NCBI GenBank assembly: GCA_964586225.1
Contig: CAZPHD010000002.1
Location: forward strand, 40,372 to 104,371
Length of the DNA stretch: 64,000 nucleotides
Reading direction: 5' to 3'
DNA from: an uncultured Fimbriimonadaceae bacterium
GTDB lineage: Bacteria; Armatimonadota; Fimbriimonadia; Fimbriimonadales; Fimbriimonadaceae
The position numbers were made by a program, and so were the translations under genes. Shown in pieces: positions 3,237 to 35,422 of this stretch; position 1 is the first letter of the stretch, and each line of letters opens with the position of its first letter. Below the pieces are notes generated by a model. The model had not been told where the DNA came from and made no database searches. It was given only the letters and a program-made list of their open reading frames with translations.

Positions 3237-3602
3237 CTAGCTGGCCATCATTTCCCACTGGCGCTGAAACACGCCGTGGACGTACTCGGCAACGGCGACG
3301 CGCTCTTCATGGGATTCGGGTGCGAACTTAAATCCGCTCACAAACATGCCGTCTTCGCCACCCGGATGGCAATAGCGAACGACACCGCGGATCGAGAGCG
3401 GGGCTTTGCCGTCTTGCCCAATCTTCAGATAGAGCGGGCTCTCAACCGGGAGGGCTTCCTTGCTTCGGAGTTGAACACCCCCGAGGCCGATGTCCACGAG
3501 CATCGCTCGATACGGCTCCTCGTCCTCACCGTGATAGATCATCGCGCATTCGACAAAGTCGAATCGTGCGAACAAACGCCCATCAATATTCTGCTGGCTC
3601 AT
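3237..3602 (-). CDS. PilZ domain protein (c-di-GMP receptor type)
   Basis: 121 aa with RxxxR (RLFAR) near the N-terminus and a DxSxxG-like DIGLGG about 25 residues later. Size and beta-rich pattern are typical of stand-alone PilZ proteins. Confidence 0.75.
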   Translation of the reverse strand: MSQQNIDGRLFARFDFVECAMIYHGEDEEPYRAMLVDIGLGGVQLRSKEALPVESPLYLKIGQDGKAPLSIRGVVRYCHPGGEDGMFVSGFKFAPESHEERVAVAEYVHGVFQRQWEMMAS

Positions 3603-3758
3603 CAGTCTTTAGGCCGCGTAGTTGCGGAGTCCCCGTTTGTGTTTTCGGCATCTGAACGCCAAATCTTTCGGTGTTTTTGCTGGACGTTGCCCGCATTCAG
3701 ACCAGGTTGGATGTTTTTCGCCCTCTGAATTCCTCGGCGAAGTACCGAAATCAACCAT

Positions 3759-4163
3759 GTGAAGTTAGGGAACGTGCGACGCGGAACGACATTGGTCGAA
3801 CTCCTGGTAGCCGCCGTGTTTGTTGGCCTCTGCTCGGCCGCCATGCTCGGAGCTATTGGAACCGCATCGCGCGCGACGTCCATCGCCGAAGAGAAGCTGA
3901 TTGCGCTGACCCTCGCCAAGAACGAGCTTGACCTCGCCCGAGCGGCCGCCAACAAGGGAACCATCACCGTCGGAACCCGCAATGAGACGCCCGCCAACAC
4001 GGGCATCAAGTATCCCGTGTCGGTGCAGACGGTCGTCACGGCCGCCGGCGGAGTCGCGGACCTGTTTCTCGTGCGCACACGTGTAAGGTGGGAAAGCGAC
4101 ACGGGCGTGGAACACAGCGGCAGCGTGACTCTCGAGACTTATGTGGTGACCCGTGACTACTAA
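3759..4163 (+). CDS. Prepilin-type N-terminal cleavage/methylation domain protein (pseudopilin/minor pilin)
   Basis: MKLGNVRRG|TTLVELLVAAVFVGL: class III signal peptide with Glu+5 and a hydrophobic helix. GTG start. Confidence 0.7.
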   Translation: MKLGNVRRGTTLVELLVAAVFVGLCSAAMLGAIGTASRATSIAEEKLIALTLAKNELDLARAAANKGTITVGTRNETPANTGIKYPVSVQTVVTAAGGVADLFLVRTRVRWESDTGVEHSGSVTLETYVVTRDY

Positions 4164-4836
4164 ACGAAGCGCTTTCTCGTTGGTTGAGATGATGGTCGCA
4201 ACCGCGATCACCGGGGCAATCGTTGGCGTCCTCGCAAGCATGTTCGTGTTCGTCGGGCATCGCGCCGCCCAGTCCATGAGTCAGAATGGCGTCTTGCTTC
4301 AGGCGCAGGCGCTGAGTGAAGAACTTGAGCGAACCGTGGTGAATGCGCAGAGCTGCCGCGTGGTTGCCGCAACCTCGGGCCCGGCCCTGATGTGTATCCT
4401 GCCGGCCACGGGCAATGACAAGGACAGCGATGGCCTGATTGACCAAGCCCTTCCGATGTGGATTACCCCGAGCGGACATGAAGGCTACGGTGCGGGAAAG
4501 CGCGTCTGGATCTACGCGAATGACAATGGCGGCAACTTGAGCATGTTGTCCGCAAGTTCAGCAAAGCGACTTTGGCGGGCCTATCGAAACGACTCAAGCA
4601 CGCCGACCACTGCCGATATTGATCGGGCGTTCTCGACGTACTTCGACACCGGAAGGTCGCGGTGGCCCCTCATCGATGATGTGACCTTTAGTGTGGATGC
4701 CAACGGGATTGTGACGTTTACGATCAAGGCGACCAAGCAACACCTTAAGGAAGCTCGTTTGGGCACCGGGGCATCCAACACCGGCTCGACCCTCATCCTG
4801 ACCCGCAAGGTCTTTTGCCGCAATTGGAGACGATAA
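4153..4836 (+). CDS. Prepilin-type N-terminal cleavage/methylation domain protein (pseudopilin/minor pilin)
   Basis: MTTKRSA|FSLVEMMVATAITGAIVGVL: FSLVE motif with Glu+5. Overlaps the preceding gene by 11 nt. Confidence 0.7.
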   Translation: MTTKRSAFSLVEMMVATAITGAIVGVLASMFVFVGHRAAQSMSQNGVLLQAQALSEELERTVVNAQSCRVVAATSGPALMCILPATGNDKDSDGLIDQALPMWITPSGHEGYGAGKRVWIYANDNGGNLSMLSASSAKRLWRAYRNDSSTPTTADIDRAFSTYFDTGRSRWPLIDDVTFSVDANGIVTFTIKATKQHLKEARLGTGASNTGSTLILTRKVFCRNWRR

Positions 4837-4838
4837 CC

Positions 4839-5936
4839 ATGGTAGACAATCGCCGAATCCGACACCTTCGCCGAGGCAGCGCCTTGGTGTATTCGAGCAT
4901 GCTCATGGTCGCGATAACGACCGTCGTCGTGACCACTTCCCAACTCAATGCGGCGGCCTCGGGAAAGGCTGAACGGCAGATCGATGCGGTGATGACCGAA
5001 GAGTCAGAGAGCGGTGCCGTAGCCTATGTCAGCGCGCTCTGCAATGCCCAGAGCATCAGCCTGCCCGCAACCTACAACTTGACGCTCAACGGCCAGACCC
5101 AGACGGTCTCGGTCGTCAAGTCAGACGCGACGATGAGTCGGACAATCCGCGTCAACACGGTCGTTAATGGTCGAAGCACGCGGAGCTTTGAGCGGCTGAT
5201 CGCAGGCCGTCAGGCCATCAGCCCTACCTACTACGGCCTCTTTCTCGGTCGCCCGTCCGACTTGAGCTCGTCGGTGATCACAACCACGAACTCGGGTCAC
5301 ATCTTTTGCCGGGGGAATCTAACCCTCAATGGGGCAAGCAACATTGATGGCGAAGTCGCGGCGACTGGCTCTGTAGTAACTAACGGAGCGACGGTTTCCA
5401 AGAACACTCTTTCCGGCGCGCGTGACCGCTTGCCGGCCACCTTCAACAGCGCAGACTACGAAACTGCTGCCGCTGGCCTGGTCAACCTTTTGACATCGCT
5501 CAACTCAATCACGTTCCTAACCCTCGGCTTGGGTCTGCCCTACAACCTGAAGTACTACCGTGGGGACATGCTATTCAAGGGAACAATCAAGGGAAGAGGA
5601 ACCGCTTTCTTTGAGGGGAACCTAACGGTTGAGAACGACGTGAAGTACGACAAGGCGACCGACCAAGCCGTCTTCATCGTTACGGGCAACATGAACATCC
5701 TGAAGAGTTGCGAGAAACTCGACGGAATCTGGATTGTTGCGGGCCACGTCACAACGGAGTCAGATACTAGCGACCTTGAGGTCACGCGCGGAGCGCTTGT
5801 CTTTATGAACCGGCTTGAGTTGAACCGGCCGCTGATCATCAACTCAGACAAAACGTTCTGGACCGATCGCAACGAAGCGGTGCGTCATCGGGCTCCTGGA
5901 TTCTGGCCAACGCCGATCTCTGGACTGCTGCGCTAG
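4839..5936 (+). CDS. PilX-N-like minor pilin / pilus-associated protein
   Basis: ATG 3 nt after the previous stop. RRGSALVYSSMLMVAITTVVV resembles the PilX/GspK-type N-terminus (no Glu+5). The remainder is Thr/Asn/Gly-rich and beta-repetitive. Confidence 0.5.
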   Translation: MVDNRRIRHLRRGSALVYSSMLMVAITTVVVTTSQLNAAASGKAERQIDAVMTEESESGAVAYVSALCNAQSISLPATYNLTLNGQTQTVSVVKSDATMSRTIRVNTVVNGRSTRSFERLIAGRQAISPTYYGLFLGRPSDLSSSVITTTNSGHIFCRGNLTLNGASNIDGEVAATGSVVTNGATVSKNTLSGARDRLPATFNSADYETAAAGLVNLLTSLNSITFLTLGLGLPYNLKYYRGDMLFKGTIKGRGTAFFEGNLTVENDVKYDKATDQAVFIVTGNMNILKSCEKLDGIWIVAGHVTTESDTSDLEVTRGALVFMNRLELNRPLIINSDKTFWTDRNEAVRHRAPGFWPTPISGLLR

Positions 5937-11208: not shown

Positions 11209-11595
11209 TTATCCCGACGTCTCTGCTCGAAATGGGAGCACCGTCGCCCGTGCTCGGTAGAGGTCAATGGTCACCAATGCTCCTTGTTCCAGCAGGGGCC
11301 AAACGGAACGCAATGCATGCACAACGTGATCACCGACGACTGTAGGGTCGACTTGCTGAGTTCTCAGCTGAACGCAACTTGGCCCGGTTGCGTTGGTGAG
11401 TGCGAGGAGTGTGCCAAAGTCCAGATCGTTTGTGAACACCGCGAGGTCATGTTCAAGGGCATAACGCATGATCGTCGCATCCGGAGCATCGGACAAGCCG
11501 ACCGTGCTCCAATGAACTGACACTATTGCAGCCCTTTCAAGAACCTGGACCCAAGAAGGCGACAGGTTCATGTCAATGAGAAGACCACGAATCAT
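11209..11595 (-). CDS. DUF5615-type PIN-like putative toxin
   Basis: 128 aa. LLIDMNLSP...VFTNDLDFG pattern typical of the Mut7-C/DUF5615 family. 4-nt overlap with the upstream DUF433 gene. Confidence 0.6.
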   Translation of the reverse strand: MIRGLLIDMNLSPSWVQVLERAAIVSVHWSTVGLSDAPDATIMRYALEHDLAVFTNDLDFGTLLALTNATGPSCVQLRTQQVDPTVVGDHVVHALRSVWPLLEQGALVTIDLYRARATVLPFRAETSG

Positions 11596-11816
11596 GTAAC
11601 GACGACTTCGTGCTCGCCCACCCTCAGGGCAGCATAGGCCAAAGACTGCCGAACGTCTTCGACGGTAACGTAGGGATAAAGCTCTAAAAGGCGTTGCTCT
11701 GAGGCACCGGAGGCCAGAAGCCCGACGATTGTCGCGACCGTGACGCGGGTCCCCTTGATGCAGGGGCGTCCTCCCATGACCTCGGGGTCGATTGAAATGC
11801 GATCAAGAGCGTTCAT
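11592..11816 (-). CDS. DUF433-type putative antitoxin
   Basis: Start taken at the internal ATG (MNALDRISIDPEVMGGRPCIKGTRVTVATIV...). GGRPCIKGTR is the DUF433 signature. The longer ORF to 11957 is probably an over-extension. Confidence 0.65.
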   Translation of the reverse strand: MNALDRISIDPEVMGGRPCIKGTRVTVATIVGLLASGASEQRLLELYPYVTVEDVRQSLAYAALRVGEHEVVVT

Positions 11817-11970
11817 CAGTTTCTTAGACGTTGGATAGTCTGGGTTCAGATCACCCGTCGCGCATCCGCAAGTTGGTGGGCGTGGAAATGACATCATCGC
11901 GCGTGTGGTTATGGGTTCAGCACATTGAATCATCGCACCCGCTTCCTGGGATCTCAACCCGACATCATCA

Positions 11971-17143: not shown

Positions 17144-18033
17144 GGCAACGGGCGTCCCACGATCCGCTCGTAGGCCTCGAGATACTTCTCACGCGTTCTG
17201 GCGACGATGTCGTCGGGCAAGGCTGGCCCCGGCGGCTGCTTATCAAAGCCGATGCTCTCCAAGTAGTCGCGTACGAACTGCTTGTCGTAGCTGGGTTGCG
17301 GCCCGCCGGGCAGATAGGTAGCGGCGTTCCAGTAGCGCGAGCTGTCGGGAGTGAGCGCCTCGTCGATCCAGATGATGCCGTCCGCCGTCTCACCGAACTC
17401 GAACTTGGTGTCAGCGAGGATGATTCCGTGTTCGCCGACCCGCTCAGCGGCTCGTCGGTAGAGGTCAAGCGTCGTATCGCGGAGCCATGTCGCATTCTCG
17501 AATCCGACGAGATCAACGGCTTGAGTCCAACTCAGGTTCTCGTCGTGGCCCGATTCGGCTTTTGTGGCGGGCGTGAAGATGGGTTCGGGTAGTCGATCGC
17601 CATCGCGAAGACCGTCGGGCAGGTCAAGCCCGTGAACGTTGCCGCCGTACTGTCGATATTCTTTATAGAGTGACCCCGCGAGATACCCACGCGCCACGCA
17701 CTCCATCTTCACCGGCACCGCCTTCTTCGCGAGCGTACAACGCCCGGCAAGCAAATCGTGCCACTCTCCGATACGATCCGCAATCAAGACATCTTCCGTG
17801 GTTATGATGTGATTTGGTGTCAAATCTTTAAACAGATCAAACCAGAACGCGCTCATCAGGTTGAGCACGCGGCCCTTGTCCGGAATGCCGTTCGCCATGA
17901 TCACATCAAACGCCGAGATTCGGTCGGTCGTGATGATGAGCAGCTCGTGGCCCAAGTCGTACAGCTCCCGCACTTTCCCCTGCCCACGAGGGGCTGGGAG
18001 CGAGGTCAATGGCGACGTAAGGAGCGCGATCAT
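17134..18033 (-). CDS. purC: Phosphoribosylaminoimidazole-succinocarboxamide (SAICAR) synthase
   Basis: GKVRELYD..., ITTDRISAFD, LADTKFEFG motifs. Confidence 0.95.
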   Translation of the reverse strand: MIALLTSPLTSLPAPRGQGKVRELYDLGHELLIITTDRISAFDVIMANGIPDKGRVLNLMSAFWFDLFKDLTPNHIITTEDVLIADRIGEWHDLLAGRCTLAKKAVPVKMECVARGYLAGSLYKEYRQYGGNVHGLDLPDGLRDGDRLPEPIFTPATKAESGHDENLSWTQAVDLVGFENATWLRDTTLDLYRRAAERVGEHGIILADTKFEFGETADGIIWIDEALTPDSSRYWNAATYLPGGPQPSYDKQFVRDYLESIGFDKQPPGPALPDDIVARTREKYLEAYERIVGRPLPCS

Positions 18034-19214
18034 GGGGCTTCGAAGGCGTCGATTGGCTGGCCGATGCTGTCGGCGAGTCTGTCGGAGATCGGATCCAGGG
18101 ACGGCTCGTCGTGGCTGACCGCGATACCCATCGCGAGGTTGCCGTCGGGCCCAGCGTACAGCTCGATGAACTCACCTGCATCGCGATCACCGATCAGCCG
18201 GACGGGAACCGCATTCTCGGGATGCCCGCGCAAGATCATGTGGAGGTCAAGGAAGTCGGTCCAGAAGTAGGGCACCTTGGCATAGAGCTCGTTCGCCCCG
18301 GTCATGTTGCTTCCCGCCGCGGTCCCCTGCCACTTCGCATTGAGGTGATGCTCGCCGCTTAGGCCCATCGGATACCCTGGTCGGAAAGCGACGTCACCAG
18401 CGGCATAGACGTCGGGATCGGCGGTCGCCAAGAACTCGTCAACTACGATGCCGTGCTTCGAATCGGTTGCTAATCCGCAGGCCGCAGCCAGCTCAACGTT
18501 TGGAACCACGCCTGTGCCGAGCACGACGACATCGCCGGTGATCGTGCCCTGATCGGTGACCACCTGATTCGCTCCGATGCTCTCGATCTTCACACCGAGC
18601 CGCAGATCAACTCCGGCATCGCGAAACGCCTGGGCGATACGATCACCGGTCTCGCGGCTGGCAAAGCTCACCCAGAAGCTGGGATCGCGCGAGATCAGGG
18701 TCACCTGCTTCTCCAGCCTCAATCCGACCGATGCGACCTCGCCCGCGATGTAACCCGAACCGACGATCACCAGCGATTGCCCCGCGGTCAGCGCCTGACG
18801 AATGCCCTCGGCGTCGTCCATCGTGCGAAGCACGTGGGCGGAATCTGCGCCCGGAATCTCAGGACGGTAGGCGCTGACACCGGTCGCAAGGAGTAGCTTG
18901 CCGTAGGTCACCACTCGCCCGTCGTTGGTGGTCACCGTTTTGGCGGCGCGATCTATGCTCACCGCCCGCGTGCCGAGCCACCGCTCAATCTTGTTCTCCT
19001 CGTAAAACACCTCGTACTTGCTGGAGATGTCGTCGATATTGACCTCGGGATTCCGCAAGAAACCCTTCGAAAGGGGTGGCCGATCGTAGGGAACGTGCAC
19101 CTCTTCGCGGATCATGAGAATGCGACCCTCGGGGTCGCGCTCTCGGATAGCTTGGGCGGCGGTAACGCTTGCCACGCCACCTCCGATGATAACGTAGTGG
19201 GCTTGCTCGGGCAT
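18030..19214 (-). CDS. FAD/NAD(P)-dependent pyridine nucleotide-disulfide oxidoreductase (ferredoxin-reductase/AIF-like)
   Basis: Start set at MPEQAHYVIIGGGVASVTAA (GxGxxG). A second dinucleotide fold is VIVGSGYIAGEVA. The longer ORF to 19373 would run through the tRNA. ATGA overlap with purC. Confidence 0.8.
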   Translation of the reverse strand: MPEQAHYVIIGGGVASVTAAQAIRERDPEGRILMIREEVHVPYDRPPLSKGFLRNPEVNIDDISSKYEVFYEENKIERWLGTRAVSIDRAAKTVTTNDGRVVTYGKLLLATGVSAYRPEIPGADSAHVLRTMDDAEGIRQALTAGQSLVIVGSGYIAGEVASVGLRLEKQVTLISRDPSFWVSFASRETGDRIAQAFRDAGVDLRLGVKIESIGANQVVTDQGTITGDVVVLGTGVVPNVELAAACGLATDSKHGIVVDEFLATADPDVYAAGDVAFRPGYPMGLSGEHHLNAKWQGTAAGSNMTGANELYAKVPYFWTDFLDLHMILRGHPENAVPVRLIGDRDAGEFIELYAGPDGNLAMGIAVSHDEPSLDPISDRLADSIGQPIDAFEAP

Positions 19215-19218
19215 CAAA

Positions 19219-19247
19219 GGGAGTATACGGTCCGTCGGTATACTCCC
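19219..19247. promoter_or_regulatory. Perfect 10-bp palindrome arms GGGAGTATAC-N9-GTATACTCCC between the oxidoreductase start and tRNA-Leu
   Basis: Arms at 19219-19228 and 19238-19247 are exact reverse complements. It sits 5 nt upstream of the minus-strand ATG and 9 nt upstream of the tRNA. Confidence 0.4.
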
Positions 19248-19255
19248 GCCCACGA

Positions 19256-19338
19256 CCCCGGGTGGCGGAATGGTAGACGCAGCGGACTTAAAATCCGTTG
19301 GCTGTAAGGCCGTGTGGGTTCGAGTCCCACCCCGGGGA
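19256..19338 (+). tRNA. tRNA-Leu (anticodon UAA), long variable arm
   Basis: Acceptor CCCCGGG/CCCGGGG, D-arm GCGGAATGGTAGACGC, anticodon stem GCGGA/TCCGT with loop CTTAAAA, variable arm TGGCTGTAAGGCCGT, T-arm GTGGG-TTCGAGT-CCCAC, discriminator A. Confidence 0.85.
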
Positions 19339-19379
19339 CCCACCTGCAACCCGTCCACAACTCTCAGCGTCAATTACGC

Positions 19380-20135
19380 GTGGGCAACCGTCGCTACACC
19401 GAACGCGAAATGGCGGAGATCATCCGCAAGGCCGCCGAGATTCAGTCCGGCCAAGCGAACCCCTCCGACTCACAAGGGATCTCCGAGGATGAGATCCGCC
19501 ACGCAGCGATGGAACTCGGAATTGCGCCCGGTGCCCTTGACGCCGCACTTAGGGGCTCAGCCGAGTCGGGGCCTCAGCAGTTCAACTGGTGGGGAGGTCC
19601 GACAAGGTACGAAGCTGAGCGAATCTTCGACGGGACGATCAGCGACGAGGCTTGGGAGGACATCCTTGCCGACTTGCGACAGACGTTCGAGGAAAACGGC
19701 ACGGTCGAACGACGGGGCGCGACCTACGAGTGGGCCGCAACTGGGGGCGGAGTGGATTACAAGACGATCACCCTGCGGCCTACCGGAGACTCAACCCGCC
19801 TCAAGGCAACCAGTTCCTTTGGGGGTTCGGCCGCCGTGTGGTACGCGGCAATGCCCATCCCCATGTTTGTGGTGGTTGGCTTACTTGCCAAGGTCGGTTG
19901 GCCAGTGAGTGCGGAGTGGCTGGTCGGTTTGAGTGCGTTTGCAGCCTCCTGGATGGGCGCGCGCCACCTCACGACCCTCGCGGTCAGGAAGCGCTTCCGT
20001 CGATTCGCAGATCTCTTCGACCGCATTCAGACTCGCATTGAGGGCCCAGACGAAGGCGTCCGACCACAACTTGTGAACTCTTCATCTGCGGTTCAGGCCG
20101 ATAACGAAGAGCAGCCCCTCACCGGTATGCCATAG
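19380..20135 (+). CDS. Hypothetical membrane protein
   Basis: Coding-looking ORF. Start at GTG 19380 or ATG 19410 (MAEIIRKAAEIQ). Two TM helices near the C-terminus. No family recognised. Confidence 0.45.
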   Translation: MGNRRYTEREMAEIIRKAAEIQSGQANPSDSQGISEDEIRHAAMELGIAPGALDAALRGSAESGPQQFNWWGGPTRYEAERIFDGTISDEAWEDILADLRQTFEENGTVERRGATYEWAATGGGVDYKTITLRPTGDSTRLKATSSFGGSAAVWYAAMPIPMFVVVGLLAKVGWPVSAEWLVGLSAFAASWMGARHLTTLAVRKRFRRFADLFDRIQTRIEGPDEGVRPQLVNSSSAVQADNEEQPLTGMP

Positions 20136-26751: not shown

Positions 26752-27965
26752 CGCGTTTCGAGCCGGATATCCGGCGACGCAAACGTCTCGTCGGTCTGCC
26801 CACCATCGTCGCTCAAGTCGCTGCCGACGCTATAGACCCGGTAGTCGGTCCCATCCGCGCGGTATGGGAACGGCTGTCCCGTAAACGGATCGGTCGACAG
26901 TTCGTCGCCAAACGATCGCAGATCGCGAGGGAACGGTTCGCCACTTCGGGCGCGTTTTTGGAGTTCGGCCTCAAGTACGAGCAGGCGCGTTCGCGCGAGC
27001 GTGTCGTCGTAGAGGTCGAGCAGCGGTCGCAGGGTTCCGGTGCAGTGGCGTGCGAACCGTCGCCAAGGTCGCCCTGGATCATGGTCGGGCTTTTTGACGG
27101 ATCCTCTTCGGGCACGGGGAACTTCAGAGAGCTGCAGGTAGTAGCGCGCTTCTCCTTCAACCTCGTCCGCGAGGCCCTTGAAGAACTGGATTCCCGCAAC
27201 GGGGTCCTTTGCCTTCATCTCACGGAGCCGATCGGTCGCCGCCCGGACATCGGGACCGAAGCCTTTGACGAGCGCTCCCCAGTTGTCGTCCCGGTAGATG
27301 TTCTGGACATGTTGGACTCCAGCCAGGAGGTTCACCCCTTCATGCTGGAGCGTTTGCGAAATGGGCGGGCGCTTCTGAAGCGCGTTTCCCATTCCATTTG
27401 CAAGACGGCTGAGATGCTCCGGAGACAATCTGGGCAGAGCGGGGGCAATGGCACGACGTGCATCATTGCAGATGGCGAGGCCAAGTGAGCCTTCCATGGC
27501 GCTTCCGCCAAGAAGATCGTAGCCGAACTTGGTGGCAAGGATGGTGCATCGAACTGCCGCATCATGATCGCTCTCGCGGACGGCCTGTTCGATCTTCCAA
27601 ACCAGCCCGCGACCGAGCAATCCCCACGCCGCAACATGGTCTGGCGTGTGGAGCGGAGACGTGGGCTTCGCTCCCCAACCGAGTTCGGAGCGGTTGGCCG
27701 TCTCCGACAGTGTCCGAAGCGCCGGGCCGATGAGCTTCAAGCAGGCCTCGCGCTTACCTGGGGTGAAATAGACCGTGGCGAGGTATTTCTCGGCAGAGGC
27801 TTCTACCTGATCAGCCGCTCGCACGTAGCCCGCATAGCGGCCCTCAGGCGTTGGGCGGGCACTCGTCTGGCGAAGCCAGTCAGGGTAAGCAAGCTCAGGA
27901 CGCGATCCGCATCCGACCAAGAAGACGGTCAAGCCGCCCAATATCCATGTGTAGCGCCGATCCAT
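26748..27965 (-). CDS. Hypothetical lipoprotein, helical, with a GspG-like C-terminal motif
   Basis: Lipobox LTVFLVGC|G. The C-terminus reads DPFTGQPFPYRADGTDYRVYSVGSDLSDDGG. No other family recognised. Confidence 0.5.
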   Translation of the reverse strand: MDRRYTWILGGLTVFLVGCGSRPELAYPDWLRQTSARPTPEGRYAGYVRAADQVEASAEKYLATVYFTPGKREACLKLIGPALRTLSETANRSELGWGAKPTSPLHTPDHVAAWGLLGRGLVWKIEQAVRESDHDAAVRCTILATKFGYDLLGGSAMEGSLGLAICNDARRAIAPALPRLSPEHLSRLANGMGNALQKRPPISQTLQHEGVNLLAGVQHVQNIYRDDNWGALVKGFGPDVRAATDRLREMKAKDPVAGIQFFKGLADEVEGEARYYLQLSEVPRARRGSVKKPDHDPGRPWRRFARHCTGTLRPLLDLYDDTLARTRLLVLEAELQKRARSGEPFPRDLRSFGDELSTDPFTGQPFPYRADGTDYRVYSVGSDLSDDGGQTDETFASPDIRLETR

Positions 27966-28028
27966 GGCGATTCCTTCAACCTCGCTGCGACATCCTGTCG
28001 CCTTATTTATGATAGCAGAGAATTCTAC

Positions 28029-28139
28029 GATTTTGGATTGGGATTTTGGATTTGCTCAGCATCGAGGATCACGACAGGTCTGATCTCTTCGGGCCAACAA
28101 TCTCCGCAATCCAAAATCCAAAATCCAAAATCGCAAATC
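28029..28139. repeat. AT-rich imperfect inverted repeat built from TTGGATT/AATCCAA heptamers, with a 53-nt spacer
   Basis: Left arm GATTTTGGATTGGGATTTTGGATTTG (28029-28054). Right arm CAATCCAAAATCCAAAATCCAAAATCGCAAATC (28108-28139). They pair as 11-bp and 12-bp blocks. It lies in the divergent lipoprotein/pilC intergenic region. Confidence 0.7.
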
Positions 28140-28180
28140 TCCCGCACATTCTCGCAAATTCGCGTGTAGTTCCACCTCGC

Positions 28181-28243
28181 CATGTTCCGACAATCTAACC
28201 AGGCACCCGCTCGGGGGCCGGAAGAGGAGAACCACGGAACATG
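28181..28243 (+). promoter_or_regulatory. 5'-leader stem whose 3' arm includes the pilC start codon
   Basis: CATGTTCCG (28181-28189) is the exact reverse complement of CGGAACATG (28235-28243; ATG = 28241). The enclosed segment contains GAGGAG (28224-28229) and a small CCCG-CTC-GGGG hairpin. Confidence 0.4.
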
Positions 28244-29443
28244 CCGGTGTTTGCATATACGGCGATTGACTCGTCGGGAAGAACGGTGCGAAGCACGATG
28301 GAAGCGGACAGCGAATCGCTGGTGCTTTCCAAGCTTCGCGACCAGGCGATGCACTGCACAGACATCAAGGTCGCCAAGAAAGGGGGCACGATCACCGTCG
28401 GACGCAAGAAGCTGAAGGCGAAGTCGATCGTGGTTTTCTCTCGGCAATTCGCGACCATGATTGACTCGGGTATCCCGATTCTGCGGTGTCTCGACATTCT
28501 CTCGTCGCAATCCAAGGATCCGATCCTCAAGGAGACCCTGGAAGCGATCACGAATGATGTCAAGAGCGGTATGGCGCTGAACGAGGCGATGCAAAAGCAC
28601 CCTGCCGTCTTCAGCAAGCTGTACGTTAACATGATCCGCGCTGCCGAAGTTGGTGGCATCCTCGACTTGATCCTCGACCGGCTTGCCGGCTTCTTGGAGT
28701 ACGAGGCGGAGATCCGAGGCAAGATCAAGAGCGCGATGATGTATCCCGTCCTTGTGCTTGGCTTCTCGGTGTTGATGCTGTTCGTGCTGTTCTCCTTCGT
28801 TCTGCCCAAATTCAAAGAGATCTTCACCGGAATGGACGTGGAGCTACCACCCGTTACCGCTGCCATGTTCGCCTTTGGAGACTTTATGCAGGCCAGCTGG
28901 TGGATGATCATCTTGGCCGTCGGTGGTATCTACTTTGGGTTCAAGCAGTGGGGCAAGACGCCCAACGGTCGGTACCGAATCGACTACATGAAGCTCAAGA
29001 TGCCGATCATTGGCGAGCTAACGCTCAAGATGTCAATCGCGCGGTTCACCCGCACCTTTGGCACCCTGATCAATAGCGGCGTCCCGATGTTGCGCAGCCT
29101 TGAGATCGTGGGTGAAACCATGAACAACGCGGTGCTGTGTCAGGCGATCGAACAAACACGATCAAGCATTCGCGAAGGACAGAAGCTCAGCGATCCGCTG
29201 GCGAAGTCCAACCTGTTCCCCACGATGGTGACGTGCATGATCGACGTCGGCGAAGAGTCAGGACGACTCTCCGAGATGTTGGTCAAGGTCGGCGACTTTT
29301 ACGATGCGGAAGTCGAAGCGACCGTGAAAGGTTTGACGAGCATGATCGAGCCGATGCTGATCATGTTCCTGGGCGGAGTCGTCGGGTTCATCGCGATCTC
29401 CGTTATGACGCCGATCTTCAAGCTGGTCAACAGCGTGAAGTAG
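28241..29443 (+). CDS. pilC: Type IV pilus / type II secretion platform protein (GspF/PilC family)
   Basis: 400 aa with two T2SSF repeats (FSRQFATMIDSGIPILRCL...; FTRTFGTLINSGVPMLRSLEIV...) and three TM segments. Confidence 0.9.
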   Translation: MPVFAYTAIDSSGRTVRSTMEADSESLVLSKLRDQAMHCTDIKVAKKGGTITVGRKKLKAKSIVVFSRQFATMIDSGIPILRCLDILSSQSKDPILKETLEAITNDVKSGMALNEAMQKHPAVFSKLYVNMIRAAEVGGILDLILDRLAGFLEYEAEIRGKIKSAMMYPVLVLGFSVLMLFVLFSFVLPKFKEIFTGMDVELPPVTAAMFAFGDFMQASWWMIILAVGGIYFGFKQWGKTPNGRYRIDYMKLKMPIIGELTLKMSIARFTRTFGTLINSGVPMLRSLEIVGETMNNAVLCQAIEQTRSSIREGQKLSDPLAKSNLFPTMVTCMIDVGEESGRLSEMLVKVGDFYDAEVEATVKGLTSMIEPMLIMFLGGVVGFIAISVMTPIFKLVNSVK

Positions 29444-29455
29444 GTTCGAGATGAC

Positions 29456-29517
29456 CGGGGTCCCTTGGCCGGGACCCTCTGAAATGAGGCTGGACGCGAC
29501 CCATGGATTGGGTCGCA
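29456..29517 (+). terminator. Two short GC stem-loops downstream of pilC (possible terminator/attenuator)
   Basis: GGGTCCC-TTGGCC-GGGACCC (29459-29478) followed by TCTGAAAT. GCGACCC-ATGGATT-GGGTCGC (29497-29517). No strong U-tract. Confidence 0.35.
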
Positions 29518-29537
29518 GGTAATCGAAGGATTGATCA

Positions 29538-30797
29538 ATGGGAAAGGAATTAGAGTCTGCCTTTGACGGCGAAGCAACGGTGTTACGCTACATCGAGACC
29601 CGTCGCGATGACTTGCGAGACGTGATTCTCGTGCAATACGCGGGGATGGTCGAGCGAATCGCACGGCGATTTGCGGGAATCGAGCCGTTCGAAGACTTGG
29701 TCCAAGTCGGGTTTATCGGGTTGCTCAATGCGCTGTCGAAGTTTGATCCGACGGCGGGGGTTCGCTTCAATACCTACGCGACTTATCTCGTCGCGGGCGA
29801 AATGAAGCACTACCTCCGCGACCGCGCCCAGACCATCCGCCAACCTGCTTGGCTCCAGGAACTGCGTGGCAAGGTTAACAAGGCGGCGAGCATTCTTCAA
29901 GCGAACCTGGGACGCACCCCTTCCGAGCGTGAGATCGCCGAACACATCGGGGTGAGCGAAACCTCCGTGCGCGAAGTGTACGTTACCCAGGAGATGCTTA
30001 AGCTCAGCTCCTTGGACGCTACGCCCGGCGATGAGGATGGCGATAGCGAACTCGAGAAGCTGGACTCCAGCGACTTCTGCGTGGAGCAACTCAGTGTGGA
30101 GGATCGGCTTGTGCTCGAAAGTGCCATGGGTCAGCTGCGCGATCTCGAGCGCCAGGTGCTAACGCTGTTCCACTTCGATTCAATGAGCCAGACCGAGATT
30201 GCCGCGCATCTCCAGATTTCGGGCAACTACGTTTCCCACATCTTGCGCCAGTCACTGGCCAAGCTCCGAAAAATCCTTCAGCAAGAGCAGTTACGAGACC
30301 GTGTGTTGCGACGTGACGCCGAAGTCGACTATGAAGTGGTTGATGATCTCACGGGTGCTTACACCGAGTCGTTCTTCCGCGCTCGCCTCGAAGAGGAAGT
30401 TCATCGCGCGTCGTGCAATGACTCGGCGGTTGGCATCGTCATGATCAGCTTCTCCGGTCTAGAGACGTTGCGCAAGTTCTACGGGGCAACGAGCGTCGAT
30501 GACTTCATGGCCGACGCCGCTGACTTCATTCGCGATTGCGTTCGAAGACTCGATCTCGTTTGCCGTTTTGAAGATACGTCGTTCGGGGTGATACTGCCGT
30601 CGTCGGGAAACAACGCTCAGATGATCCAGCGACGTCTTGTCAGCAAGATCGTCGCTTGGGTGAACCAGCGCTACGCTCGGAACACGCCGGTTCGGGTTTC
30701 GATCGGGCATGCCGCCTTTCCCGAGGCGGGACGATCAGGCAAGCAGCTGCTCGCTGCCGTGAAGATGGAGCAGATCATCACCAGCGAAGCCGCCTAG
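29538..30797 (+). CDS. Sigma-70 family (SigB/SigF/FliA-like group 3) sigma factor fused to a degenerate GGDEF domain
   Basis: Region 2: FEDLVQVGFIGLLNALSKFDP..GVRFNTYATYLVAGEMKHYLRD. Region 4.2 HTH: MSQTEIAAHLQISGNYVSHILRQSLAKLRK. C-terminal 150 aa: DDLTGAYTESFF...VGIVMISFSG...RRLDLVCRFEDTSFGVILP...VSIGHAAF (GGDEF fold, with signature EDTSF). It is a single uninterrupted ORF. Confidence 0.8.
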   Translation: MGKELESAFDGEATVLRYIETRRDDLRDVILVQYAGMVERIARRFAGIEPFEDLVQVGFIGLLNALSKFDPTAGVRFNTYATYLVAGEMKHYLRDRAQTIRQPAWLQELRGKVNKAASILQANLGRTPSEREIAEHIGVSETSVREVYVTQEMLKLSSLDATPGDEDGDSELEKLDSSDFCVEQLSVEDRLVLESAMGQLRDLERQVLTLFHFDSMSQTEIAAHLQISGNYVSHILRQSLAKLRKILQQEQLRDRVLRRDAEVDYEVVDDLTGAYTESFFRARLEEEVHRASCNDSAVGIVMISFSGLETLRKFYGATSVDDFMADAADFIRDCVRRLDLVCRFEDTSFGVILPSSGNNAQMIQRRLVSKIVAWVNQRYARNTPVRVSIGHAAFPEAGRSGKQLLAAVKMEQIITSEAA

Positions 30798-30809
30798 TAC
30801 AATCTGCGC

Positions 30810-32009
30810 ATGAACGCGCAGTTTCAGGATTGGCTTGGTGATCAGCTTCAGGGGCTCAAGGATCAGCACCTCTACAAGGTGCCGAAGATCTTGGAGACCC
30901 CGGCCGGTGGGCGCGTTCGCATGGATGGGCGAGAGGTCGTCAACCTCTCCAGCAATAACTATCTTGGTCTCGCCAATCACCCGAAGGTGCGGCAAGCCGC
31001 GCTGGATTCGATCGAGCGCTGGGGCGTTGGCGCCGGTGCCGTCCGATGGATCGGTGGCACGATGTCCGTCCATGAAGAACTCGAAGAGCGGCTCGCGAAG
31101 TTCAAGAAGACCGAAGCGGTCCTCGTGTTCACCGGCGGATTCACCGCGAACTCTGGCTGCATCCCCGCGGTGCTGACCGATAAGGACGTCGTCATTTCCG
31201 ACGAACTGAACCACGCATCGATTATCGACGGCGTTCGGCTCTCGCCAGCGGCGTATCGCAAGTCGGAAGGCTGGGTCTACGCCCATAAAGACATGGATGA
31301 CCTGGAGCGGGCCTTGAAGCTCGCAAATGAGAAAGGATTTGCAAAAAAGTTAATCATAACCGACGGCGTGTTCAGCATGGACGGCGACATCGCTCCCATG
31401 CTTGACATCGTTAACCTCGCCGAGCAATACGGTGCGATCGTCATGATCGACGACGCCCACGGCAGCGGCGTATTGGGCGAGCATGGCGCGGGAACAACGT
31501 CGCACTTCGGCCTCTACGGCCGGGTGGACATCCAGCTCGGGACGCTCAGCAAGGCACTCGGCGTGATCGGAGGCTATATCGCGGGTTCGGCCAAGCTCAA
31601 GGATTGGTTGATCAACCGCGGTCGCCCCTACCTGTTCTCAACCGCGCATCCGCCGATGGTCGCCGCCGCCCTTATCGCCGCGCTGGACGTGATGGAGAAT
31701 GACCCCGAGCCCATGCGTAAGCTTTGGGACAACACGCGCAAGTGGAAGCAGATGCTCGCCGACGCGGACTTCGACACCATGGGCAGCGAAACCCCGATCA
31801 CCCCGGTGTACGTTGGCGACGAAGCCAAGGCGCAGGAAATGGAGCGCCTGCTCTTCGCCGAGGGTGTCTACGCGCTTGCCATCGTGTTCCCAACCGTTGC
31901 CCGCGGCAAGGCGCGGCTCCGGACGATGCCCAACGCGACCCATACGGAGGAAGATCTCGCGTTCGCGATTGATGCTTTCAAGCGCGTCCGCGACCGACTG
32001 GGCCGGTAA
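30810..32009 (+). CDS. PLP-dependent acyl-CoA:amino acid C-acyltransferase (glycine C-acetyltransferase Kbl / 8-amino-7-oxononanoate synthase family)
   Basis: NNYLGLANHP, SDELNHASIIDG, DDAHGSGVLG and GTLSKALG (PLP lysine) motifs. Kbl and BioF cannot be separated by eye. Confidence 0.85.
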   Translation: MNAQFQDWLGDQLQGLKDQHLYKVPKILETPAGGRVRMDGREVVNLSSNNYLGLANHPKVRQAALDSIERWGVGAGAVRWIGGTMSVHEELEERLAKFKKTEAVLVFTGGFTANSGCIPAVLTDKDVVISDELNHASIIDGVRLSPAAYRKSEGWVYAHKDMDDLERALKLANEKGFAKKLIITDGVFSMDGDIAPMLDIVNLAEQYGAIVMIDDAHGSGVLGEHGAGTTSHFGLYGRVDIQLGTLSKALGVIGGYIAGSAKLKDWLINRGRPYLFSTAHPPMVAAALIAALDVMENDPEPMRKLWDNTRKWKQMLADADFDTMGSETPITPVYVGDEAKAQEMERLLFAEGVYALAIVFPTVARGKARLRTMPNATHTEEDLAFAIDAFKRVRDRLGR

Positions 32010-35050: not shown

Positions 35051-35422
35051 ATGGGTCCAAGAGGGTGGAGAGCCATGGTCTATCGTCCCCTTCGCTATGA
35101 GCAGATGATGCGGGCGGCGGAGTCGTTCGATGTTCGAGCGCGACGCATGTTTGGCGGGATGGGTGTCTATACCGGCGAGAAGATGTTTGCCTTCTTGATC
35201 GGAGACGACATCGGCCTAAAGCTGTGCCCGGATGACCTTGAGGAAGCGATGGGGCTCCCAGGTGCGACAGCGCTTCGTCCGGACCCCAACTCAGAGCCGA
35301 TGCGTGAGTACGTGAAGATGCCGCGCGACATTCTCGACAACTACGAGATCTTTATGATGTGGGTCGAGCGGAGCGCGATCTACGCTCAATCGAAACTGCC
35401 TCAAGCCTCCGGCGGCGATTAG
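35051..35422 (+). CDS. TfoX N-terminal domain protein
   Basis: RRMFGGMGVYTGEKMFAFLIGDDIGLKL is the TfoX_N signature. The start is uncertain (35051 or 35075). Confidence 0.7.
   Translation: MGPRGWRAMVYRPLRYEQMMRAAESFDVRARRMFGGMGVYTGEKMFAFLIGDDIGLKLCPDDLEEAMGLPGATALRPDPNSEPMREYVKMPRDILDNYEIFMMWVERSAIYAQSKLPQASGGD

Follow-up and report, generated by a model that had tools for sequence, protein, structure and literature searches.

Can a sigma factor carry its own receptor for cyclic di-GMP (c-di-GMP), a second messenger? The question is raised by a gene in a 64,000-nucleotide stretch of DNA from an uncultured Fimbriimonadaceae bacterium (assembly GCA_964586225.1, contig CAZPHD010000002.1, positions 40,372 to 104,371), and it is this whole stretch that is called the window below. 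The gene, at 29538..30797 on the plus strand, is an open reading frame (ORF) without interruption, coding for 419 amino acids (aa) plus a stop codon, in which a sigma factor is followed by a degenerate GGDEF domain. A preliminary description of the window, made from the sequence letters, had read it as a SigB/SigF-like sigma factor fused to a catalytically dead GGDEF domain with an intact inhibitory site, and had proposed that c-di-GMP acts on the sigma factor through this domain. The analysis presented here leads us to favour, with moderate confidence, a reading in which the GGDEF-like domain is a c-di-GMP receptor and the availability of the sigma factor is set via the protein's own C-terminal domain. 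The combination of a frozen inhibitory site with a decayed active site is the strongest computational argument for such a receptor, and it is taken up below after the architecture and the spread of the protein.

Architecture and distribution of the sigma-GGDEF family

Pfam profiles locate sigma-70 regions 2 (aa 33-97, E 2.5e-15), 3 (aa 108-171, E 7.6e-11) and 4 (aa 196-245, E 7.8e-12) at 29634..30272 on the plus strand, every one of them above its Pfam cut-off. A degenerate GGDEF-fold domain with a truncated C-terminal end follows at 30339..30758 on the same strand (aa 268-407, E 4.4e-19, 69 bits for a cut-off of 23.8). The fusion that had been read by eye is thus borne out by significant matches to all four profiles in one ORF. 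The GGDEF profile is covered at positions 3-146 of 161, and because the match stops at position 146 the protein lacks the final helix of a canonical domain. In GGDEF domains this final helix is the carrier of phosphate-binding residues. An AlphaFold2 model, built with 77 family sequences as input and reaching a mean predicted local distance difference test score (pLDDT) of 80.5, agrees with the profiles. A Foldseek comparison of its C-terminal domain identifies the GGDEF fold, with a template modelling score of 0.73-0.78 and a root-mean-square deviation of about 3 Å to the GGDEF structures 4urs/4urg from T. maritima. In the model the helix of region 4.2 runs unbroken to aa 259, directly before the GGDEF-like domain, as a single helix of aa 229-259; the linker, which is conserved in the family, is likewise modelled as continuous helix.

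The sigma part is most similar to the SigB/F/G model of NCBIfam (TIGR02980), which it matches with 178.7 bits, under the curated cut-off of 234.35. The SigF model PRK07408 ranks second, also under its curated cut-off, and FliA/WhiG (TIGR02479) is matched with 120 bits, under the cut-off of 189.6. Since all of these scores are under their curated cut-offs, the protein is a member of no curated subfamily. Matches to the Protein Data Bank (PDB) give S. aureus SigB and G. stearothermophilus SigF as the nearest solved sigma structures, followed by WhiG and FliA. The affinity to the SigB/SigF/FliA group proposed earlier therefore stands, with SigB/F/G as the best model and SigB and SigF as the nearest structures. 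Judged by its profile scores, the sigma part is a group-3 sigma factor outside every curated subfamily, that is to say a relative of the SigB/F/G subfamily which by curated score is not a member of it. The architecture of the extracytoplasmic function (ECF) sigma factors, which belong to group 4 and have regions 2 and 4 only, does not apply, as region 3 is present.

A fused ORF of this kind raises the question of whether two genes have been joined by an assembly error or a frameshift, and a possible indel or misassembly had indeed been raised in the preliminary description. In the databases, the best 120 relatives have lengths of about 420 aa throughout and share with the window protein the domain set and 60-94% identity; independent NCBI, JGI, ENA and Logan assemblies yield this same ORF. 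Those relatives that bear a name are annotated either as 'sigma-70 family RNA polymerase sigma factor [Fimbriimonadaceae bacterium]' or as 'RNA polymerase sigma-B factor'. When each species was represented by a single genome, a relative was detected in 363 species-level genomes. Every one of the best 80 of the 363 is full-length, and their source is in each case Fimbriimonadaceae, Fimbriimonadales or Armatimonadota; the complete genome CP021424 is among them. The loci of these 80 (L001-L080) were used for the locus comparisons below, together with two divergent loci, L081 and L082. The independent assemblies and the number of genomes, together with a linker that is conserved and modelled as continuous helix, rule out the artefact, which we now regard as hardly conceivable, and the concern is dismissed for a fusion that is conserved in hundreds of genomes.

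When the GGDEF-like domain alone was searched against 1.84 billion cluster representatives, only 6 matches were obtained at E <= 1e-30 and 220 at E <= 1e-10, and among the best 150 matches a sigma domain is present in members of the sigma-GGDEF family only. Twelve further full-length clusters of the family (at the 50% level) extend it down to 34% overall identity. The family is conserved across the order Fimbriimonadales of the phylum Armatimonadota. The preliminary description knew of no characterised example of this architecture, and our literature search, which covered few subscription journals and is hence weak evidence on the point, likewise found no published sigma-GGDEF fusion.

Active site, inhibitory site and C-terminus of the GGDEF-like domain

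What the fused domain could do was approached through its motifs, the register of which was obtained from HMMER alignments to solved cyclases, while the conservation of residues was counted over 133 aligned family sequences. The position of the GG(D/E)EF signature is occupied by EDTSF (30570..30584, plus strand, aa 345-349), which aligns with GGEEF five residues downstream of an RxxD motif. Among the 133 sequences this position shows 55 pentapeptide variants, and GG(D/E)EF is found in none of them. The commonest pentapeptides are GESGF and GETGF, and most members have G-E-x-G-F; EDTSF is restricted to the window protein and its closest relatives, in which the two glycines are lost too. The metal-binding DxD strand aligns with S304-F-S306. 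The loss of the metal-binding residues noted in the preliminary description is accordingly upheld, while its mapping of the strand to ISFSGL was one residue off. In the window protein the equivalents of the metal-binding Asp and guanine-binding Asn/Asp residues are S304, S306, R312 and the variable position 321. Across the family the metal-binding Asp equivalent varies between N, Q, E, D, R and K, the guanine-binding Asn has given way to R, K or Q, and the catalytic acidic residues E370 and E371 have T/S and G as their equivalents. Altogether the equivalents of D327, N335, D344, E370 and E371 are lost, and from its sequence the cyclase active site is dead in all 133 family members, as had been predicted for the window protein.

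It could still be argued that the domain is an active cyclase with an unorthodox signature, which would synthesize c-di-GMP locally. The GGDEF fold is present, and most members retain G345, G348 and F349 of the signature. This is opposed by the replacement of E370 and E371, by a metal-binding Asp equivalent that is unconserved, by the change of the guanine-binding Asn to Arg/Lys and by the missing final helix; the window protein is moreover without even the two signature glycines. We therefore regard a remaining cyclase activity as very improbable.

The inhibitory site gives the opposite picture. The RxxD motif is present as RRLD (30543..30554, plus strand, aa 336-339), in which R336 and D339 correspond to R359 and D362 of PleD in the alignments to solved cyclases. 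R336 is retained in 132 of the 133 sequences and D339 in all of them, and neither residue changes in members as distant as 34% identity. The placement of the motif five residues before the degenerate signature, read by eye earlier, was confirmed by the register on solved cyclases. A secondary inhibitory-site residue, R313 of PleD, has its equivalent in R290 (30405..30407, plus strand), which is retained in 133/133 sequences. This assignment follows from an ungapped register of DDLTG..R290..R336 with DQLTG..R313..R359 of PleD, which we take from a hand count on the PleD sequence. The range of the PleD match (query 260-368 to PleD 282-391) agrees with the hand-counted equivalences of R290 with R313, R336 with R359 and D339 with D362. 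The third primary inhibitory-site residue, R390 of PleD, probably has its equivalent in R366 (30633..30635, plus strand), which in the alignments to 4urs (T. maritima) and 3i5a (WspR) falls opposite the Arg or Lys in the canonical (E)R(I/L) helix, and which is retained in 131 of the sequences. R290, R336, D339 and R366 all come within the ten positions of the domain that vary least. With an RxxD motif that is nearly invariant and with R366 and R290 kept as well, the case for an intact inhibitory site, and with it the idea of a receptor, is stronger than could be known from a single sequence.

Three more residues, R283, E286 and E287, share the helix face of R290 and are likewise invariant in the family (30375-30407 in the window, aa 280-290), and they are without counterpart among the known c-di-GMP contacts in PleD.

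Two other readings of the domain have to be weighed with this pattern. According to the first, the degenerate domain binds no nucleotide and is a dimerisation or docking module, for example one that ties the sigma factor to PilC or the pilus machine, or to an anti-sigma factor from an unlinked gene, and the conserved arginines and aspartate are a protein interface or stabilisers of the fold. There is a precedent in GdpS of S. aureus, a degenerate GGDEF protein which purely recruits DgkB (PMC11962490), and the invariance of R283, E286 and E287, not being known c-di-GMP contacts, would also fit. What this reading has difficulty in explaining is that the four PleD inhibitory-site positions are the most conserved ones while the active site drifted, as a new interface is unlikely to fall on exactly those four residues. 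We consider it unlikely, though it is the one of these two readings to be taken more seriously. According to the second, which appears improbable to us, what the domain senses is a different nucleotide, for instance (p)ppGpp, GTP or a cyclic dinucleotide other than c-di-GMP. Some degenerate GGDEF domains, such as that of Caulobacter PdeA, bind GTP at the former active site. The PDB entries 9g85 and 9g86, titled PleD with c-di-GMP and ppGpp or pppGpp, indicate that GGDEF domains can bind alarmones. However, the guanine- and phosphate-binding residues are lost or truncated in the sigma-GGDEF proteins, which speaks against GTP at the active site, and the residues that are retained are c-di-GMP contacts in PleD and WspR.

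The extreme C-terminus of the protein shows a further regularity. The chain ends in Ala-Ala (A418-A419, 30789..30794, plus strand), and so do 110 of the 132 family members whose C-termini were compared, the others including VA (10) and AS (9). Fragments of family members have the AA ending as well. As a background, 13 of 753 other proteins of the same loci (1.7%) end in AA. The tail in front of the two alanines is unconserved and of variable length, and pLDDT is below 50 at aa 417-419. A non-polar Ala-Ala at a flexible C-terminus is a hallmark of ssrA-tagged proteins and of CtrA, which are ClpXP substrates. By analogy with these, the tail of the sigma-GGDEF proteins looks like a ClpXP-type degron.

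The pilC locus and its putative expression signals

The gene directly upstream of the sigma gene is pilC (28241..29443, plus strand), which codes for a type IV pilus / type II secretion system (T2SS) platform protein of 400 aa (T2SSF, Pfam E 1.9e-64). The position of pilC reported in the preliminary description holds for the window and also for the family: in 77 of the 80 related loci pilC is the gene immediately 5' of the sigma gene and shares its strand, and a contig end explains 2 of the 3 exceptions. In L082, whose member is 40% identical, the order is a PilT-like T2SSE gene, pilC and the sigma gene, while in the divergent L081 pilC is missing upstream. No other conserved neighbour was found among the 80 loci. 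The next most frequent neighbour cluster, a secreted-looking protein of 334 aa, is found in 29 loci, and the remainder are unrelated housekeeping genes. In agreement with the earlier statement that no RsbW/RsbV-like genes are adjacent, no gene of the RsbW/RsbV, SpoIIAB or STAS type was found as a conserved neighbour among the genes adjacent to the sigma gene in the 80 loci. The strictness of the pairing with pilC would suit a protein that is physically linked to the pilus platform, and is thereby a further point in favour of the nucleotide-free docking module discussed above.

A promoter-like motif is located upstream of pilC at 28164..28194 on the plus strand. It consists of a -35-like GTGTAG (28164-28169), a 17-nt spacer and a -10-like CCGACAAT (28187-28194), the latter 54 nt ahead of the pilC ATG. 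In the related loci the k-mer CCGA(C/G/T)AA(T/C) is enriched 5' of pilC, and a weaker C(G/C)TnnnG element is found 17 nt 5' of it. With a weight matrix derived from 37 of 52 loci, the window site scores 27.8 bits and is the sole strong match in the 64 kb. At 16 bits or more there are 57 matches in 1.08 Mb of related loci, and about 55 of them are situated 5' of pilC or immediately 5' of the sigma gene. The latter arrangement is seen in L024 (7833-7876), where about 1.3 kb is inserted between pilC and the sigma gene, in L078 (6124-6167), which is without an upstream pilC, and in L018 (118-161), and it indicates that the motif follows the sigma gene. The -10 element CCGAnAAT resembles the flagellar/WhiG consensus GCCGATAA quoted in PMC8325347, and L082 reads TAAAGTTT-N11-TCCAACAAT. 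No sigma-70-type promoter was found in 27900-31000.

Between the two genes, the predicted RNA fold of 29444-29545 contains two hairpins. The first, GGGGUCCC-UUGGCC-GGGACCCU (29457..29478, plus strand), is placed 14 nt past the pilC stop codon and has no U-tract. It is not called as a terminator, and no intrinsic terminator was found between pilC and the sigma gene in a terminator scan, for which reason the two genes are probably co-transcribed. The second hairpin, GCGACCCA-UGGAU-UGGGUCGC (29496..29516, plus strand), carries GGA in its loop and has its 3' end 22 nt before the sigma start codon. A second GGA is part of the Shine-Dalgarno sequence GAAGGA (29525..29530, plus strand), which was read from the sequence 8 nt before the ATG. 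Taking as criterion a perfect stem of at least 5 bp with GGA in the loop and an end 14-36 nt before the sigma start, a GGA-loop hairpin is found in 44 of 79 loci, as compared with a mean of 3.8 (maximum 9) in shuffled sequences and with 16 of 351 (4.6%) other genes. The 44 hairpins have 39 distinct stems, and their commonest loop is AGGAU. A GGA at -17..-4 of the start is present in 74 of the 79 family loci and in 96 of the 351 control genes. Before other genes of the loci there are only scattered cases of GGA-loop hairpins, three of them in pilC leaders. The consensus selected in vitro for CsrA/RsmA by SELEX is RUACARGGAUGU. As far as predicted folds can tell, the GGA-loop hairpin and the GGA Shine-Dalgarno sequence have the two-site layout of CsrA/RsmA targets. 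Taken together, the Ala-Ala tail, the promoter motif and the GGA leader suggest control at several levels, proteolysis included, and not simply an anti-sigma factor in cis.

Some other features of the region upstream of pilC were noted. An inverted repeat with arms of 28 nt, 50 nt apart (28028-28055 and 28106-28133), is built from ATTTTGG / CCAAAAT heptads and lies 30-135 nt 5' of the promoter-like motif. The heptad run has 6 matches in the window for 0.29 expected, 5 of them at the inverted repeat; the latter may serve as the binding site of a regulator or be a small repeat element. A riboswitch or other known RNA 5' of pilC or of the sigma gene was considered and rejected, a permissive scan of 27800-29700 having given a chance snoRNA match only. 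At the gathering threshold, Rfam identifies one tRNA in the whole window and no riboswitch.

Elsewhere in the window, the pilus and motility context described earlier is found in part. A gene for a single-domain PilZ protein (3237-3602, minus strand) is situated near a gene for a prepilin-type N-methylation protein (4153-4836) that is divergent from it, both recognised with Pfam, whereas motAB is absent from all window ORFs that were scanned with Pfam. Because a PilZ-domain protein is encoded, c-di-GMP is taken to be used in the organism and to have further receptors there. Ahead of the PilZ gene comes an ORF of 166 aa without annotation (3602-4102, minus strand). The promoter motif has a weak match just 5' of the PilZ gene (GCCGAAAAC, 12 bits, 3637-3680), and an ORF of 373 aa without Pfam match in the region 3237-5936 is also divergent from this gene. 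The sigma gene itself is followed after 12 nt (30797-30810), without a terminator, by a class I/II aminotransferase gene of the kbl/bioF type, which may be co-transcribed with it in the window; this arrangement is shared only with the closest relative, L001. In addition to the aminotransferase, Pfam identifies GATase, MlaE and S1 among the window neighbours, the remaining ones being housekeeping genes. A TfoX_N protein of 123 aa is encoded at 35051-35422, 4 kb 3' of the sigma gene, and is not a conserved neighbour in the related loci. Proteins of the TfoX family are regulators of competence and type IV pili in other bacteria. Further away, two small neighbouring genes, coding for DUF433 and DUF5615 domains (11209-11957, minus strand), have a layout typical of a toxin-antitoxin-like module. 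The tRNA at 19256-19338 overlaps the ends of the called ORFs 18030-19373 (minus strand) and 19314-20135 (plus strand), and because of this overlap the starts of both ORFs are probably miscalled.

Proposed mechanism and known parallels

Intercalated c-di-GMP in PleD and WspR is held by RxxD and a helix arginine, and from there it forms a bridge to a further arginine that belongs to another domain. In the sigma-GGDEF protein the receptor site would likewise be of the PleD type, with R336, D339 and R366 as the primary site and R290 as the secondary one. Intercalated c-di-GMP would then cross-link the GGDEF-like domains of two molecules, or the domain to the sigma part; in the simplest form this would be a ligand-driven dimerisation of the GGDEF-like domain or its locking beside region 4. 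The cross-linking would alter the amount of free sigma factor that joins the core RNA polymerase, and it could also hide the flexible Ala-Ala C-terminus from a ClpXP-type protease or expose it. The output would be transcription from sigma-28-like promoters, probably including that of its own pilC-sigma operon, and type IV pilus expression would thereby be tied to c-di-GMP. Synthesis of the protein would be gated separately, at translation, by the GGA-loop hairpin and the GGA Shine-Dalgarno sequence, in the manner of CsrA.

The most complete version of this proposal is a self-contained sigma factor gated by c-di-GMP, in which bridging between R336/D339/R366 and R290 dimerises the sigma factor or locks region 4 and sets the access of ClpXP, with no anti-sigma factor involved. 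Such a sigma factor would serve the autoregulated pilC-sigma operon along with other type IV pilus genes of Fimbriimonadales, and a CsrA-type gate would be added on top. Here we infer ligand binding, dimerisation, proteolysis, autoregulation and CsrA control, and the complete version is a tentative one, which we think rather doubtful in all its parts at once.

A number of points weigh against the proposed mechanism. The equivalence of R366 with R390 needs a one-residue gap in a loop, which is found in 2 of the 3 pairwise alignments and not in that with PleD, where the residue is one position off in the ungapped register. RxxD and the neighbouring arginines are common in active cyclases too, and their conservation is possibly inherited or structural. 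The AlphaFold2 model has a predicted template modelling score (pTM) of 0.39, so that the arrangement of the domains is not predicted and the model gives no confident interdomain contact. For the promoter, the -35 element and the spacing deviate in most loci from the canonical TAAA-N15-GCCGATAA layout, and the motif could be read by another sigma-28-type factor. There is no second strong site in the 64-kb window, and a regulon is not seen in the 17-kb loci either. Recognition of the Ala-Ala tail by ClpXP is an analogy with ssrA and CtrA. Finally, tblastn searches with CsrA of B. subtilis and E. coli and with FliW found neither csrA nor fliW in the window and the 80 loci, which are a small share of the genomes.

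The reading in which the GGDEF-like domain is a c-di-GMP receptor can be compared with several known systems. As of 2021, RsiG-WhiG was the only sigma/anti-sigma pair known as a target of c-di-GMP (PMC8325347). In Rubrobacter, c-di-GMP keeps WhiG, which belongs to the sigma-28 family, inactive via RsiG, and WhiG drives type IV pili (PMC8325347). The likeness consists in a group-3 sigma factor under c-di-GMP, as proposed here, and in the pilus genes, which are read from GCCGATAA-type promoters in Rubrobacter; the operon studied here contains pilC and has CCGAnAAT as its -10-like element. The two systems differ in the sensor, which in Actinomycetota is a separate coiled-coil anti-sigma factor with E(X)3S(X)2R(X)3Q(X)3D motifs and here a fused domain of the GGDEF fold with RxxD. 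They also differ in the sigma factor, which here scores higher on the SigB/F/G than on the FliA/WhiG model. By analogy, RsiG-WhiG of Rubrobacter is the closest functional parallel.

For the receptor domain itself, the parallels are PelD and PopA, in which the active site is dead and the RxxD of the inhibitory site, being retained, acts as the c-di-GMP receptor site. The sigma-GGDEF protein shares the dead active site and the retained RxxD, and PopA in addition links c-di-GMP to ClpXP proteolysis. The outputs of PelD and PopA are polysaccharide synthesis or the delivery of substrates as an adaptor, and neither of them is a sigma factor, while here the receptor domain, the transcription factor and the candidate degron are found in one chain. 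ECF41 and ECF42 sigma factors have a fused C-terminal domain that regulates in cis instead of a separate anti-sigma factor. They differ in belonging to group 4, without region 3, and in having SnoaL-like or tetratricopeptide repeat (TPR) extensions without a known second-messenger ligand. By analogy, the sigma-GGDEF protein would work like a fusion of these two known ideas, a degenerate-GGDEF receptor and a sigma factor with a C-terminal extension acting in cis. A direct precedent for ligand-gated stability is TipF of Caulobacter, a degenerate-EAL receptor which is shielded from ClpXP by c-di-GMP binding (PMC3792480), although it has the EAL instead of the GGDEF fold and is no transcription factor.

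The cyanobacterial SigF is similar in another respect. In Synechocystis it is a group-3 sigma factor for type IV pilus and motility genes and is autoregulated (PMC2532724), and the SigF model PRK07408 is the second-best NCBIfam match of the protein studied here. It differs in having no C-terminal domain and in its promoter, TAGGC / GGTAA. Autoregulation of pilC and the sigma gene as in Synechocystis SigF is plausible, and the biological role of the sigma-GGDEF protein would parallel those of RsiG-WhiG and of cyanobacterial SigF.

The family is large and confined to a poorly studied phylum, and the annotation as 'sigma-70 family' or 'sigma-B factor' hides it. It is also accessible, in that the strict pairing with pilC offers a clear phenotype, R290, R336, D339, R366 and the terminal AA are ready point mutants, and the protein is soluble. 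If the proposed receptor function holds true, c-di-GMP would set the supply of sigma factor to RNA polymerase directly, without an anti-sigma protein. The sigma-GGDEF family would then be a second, differently built solution for the control of a sigma factor by c-di-GMP, and the shortest route from the messenger to the choice of promoter.

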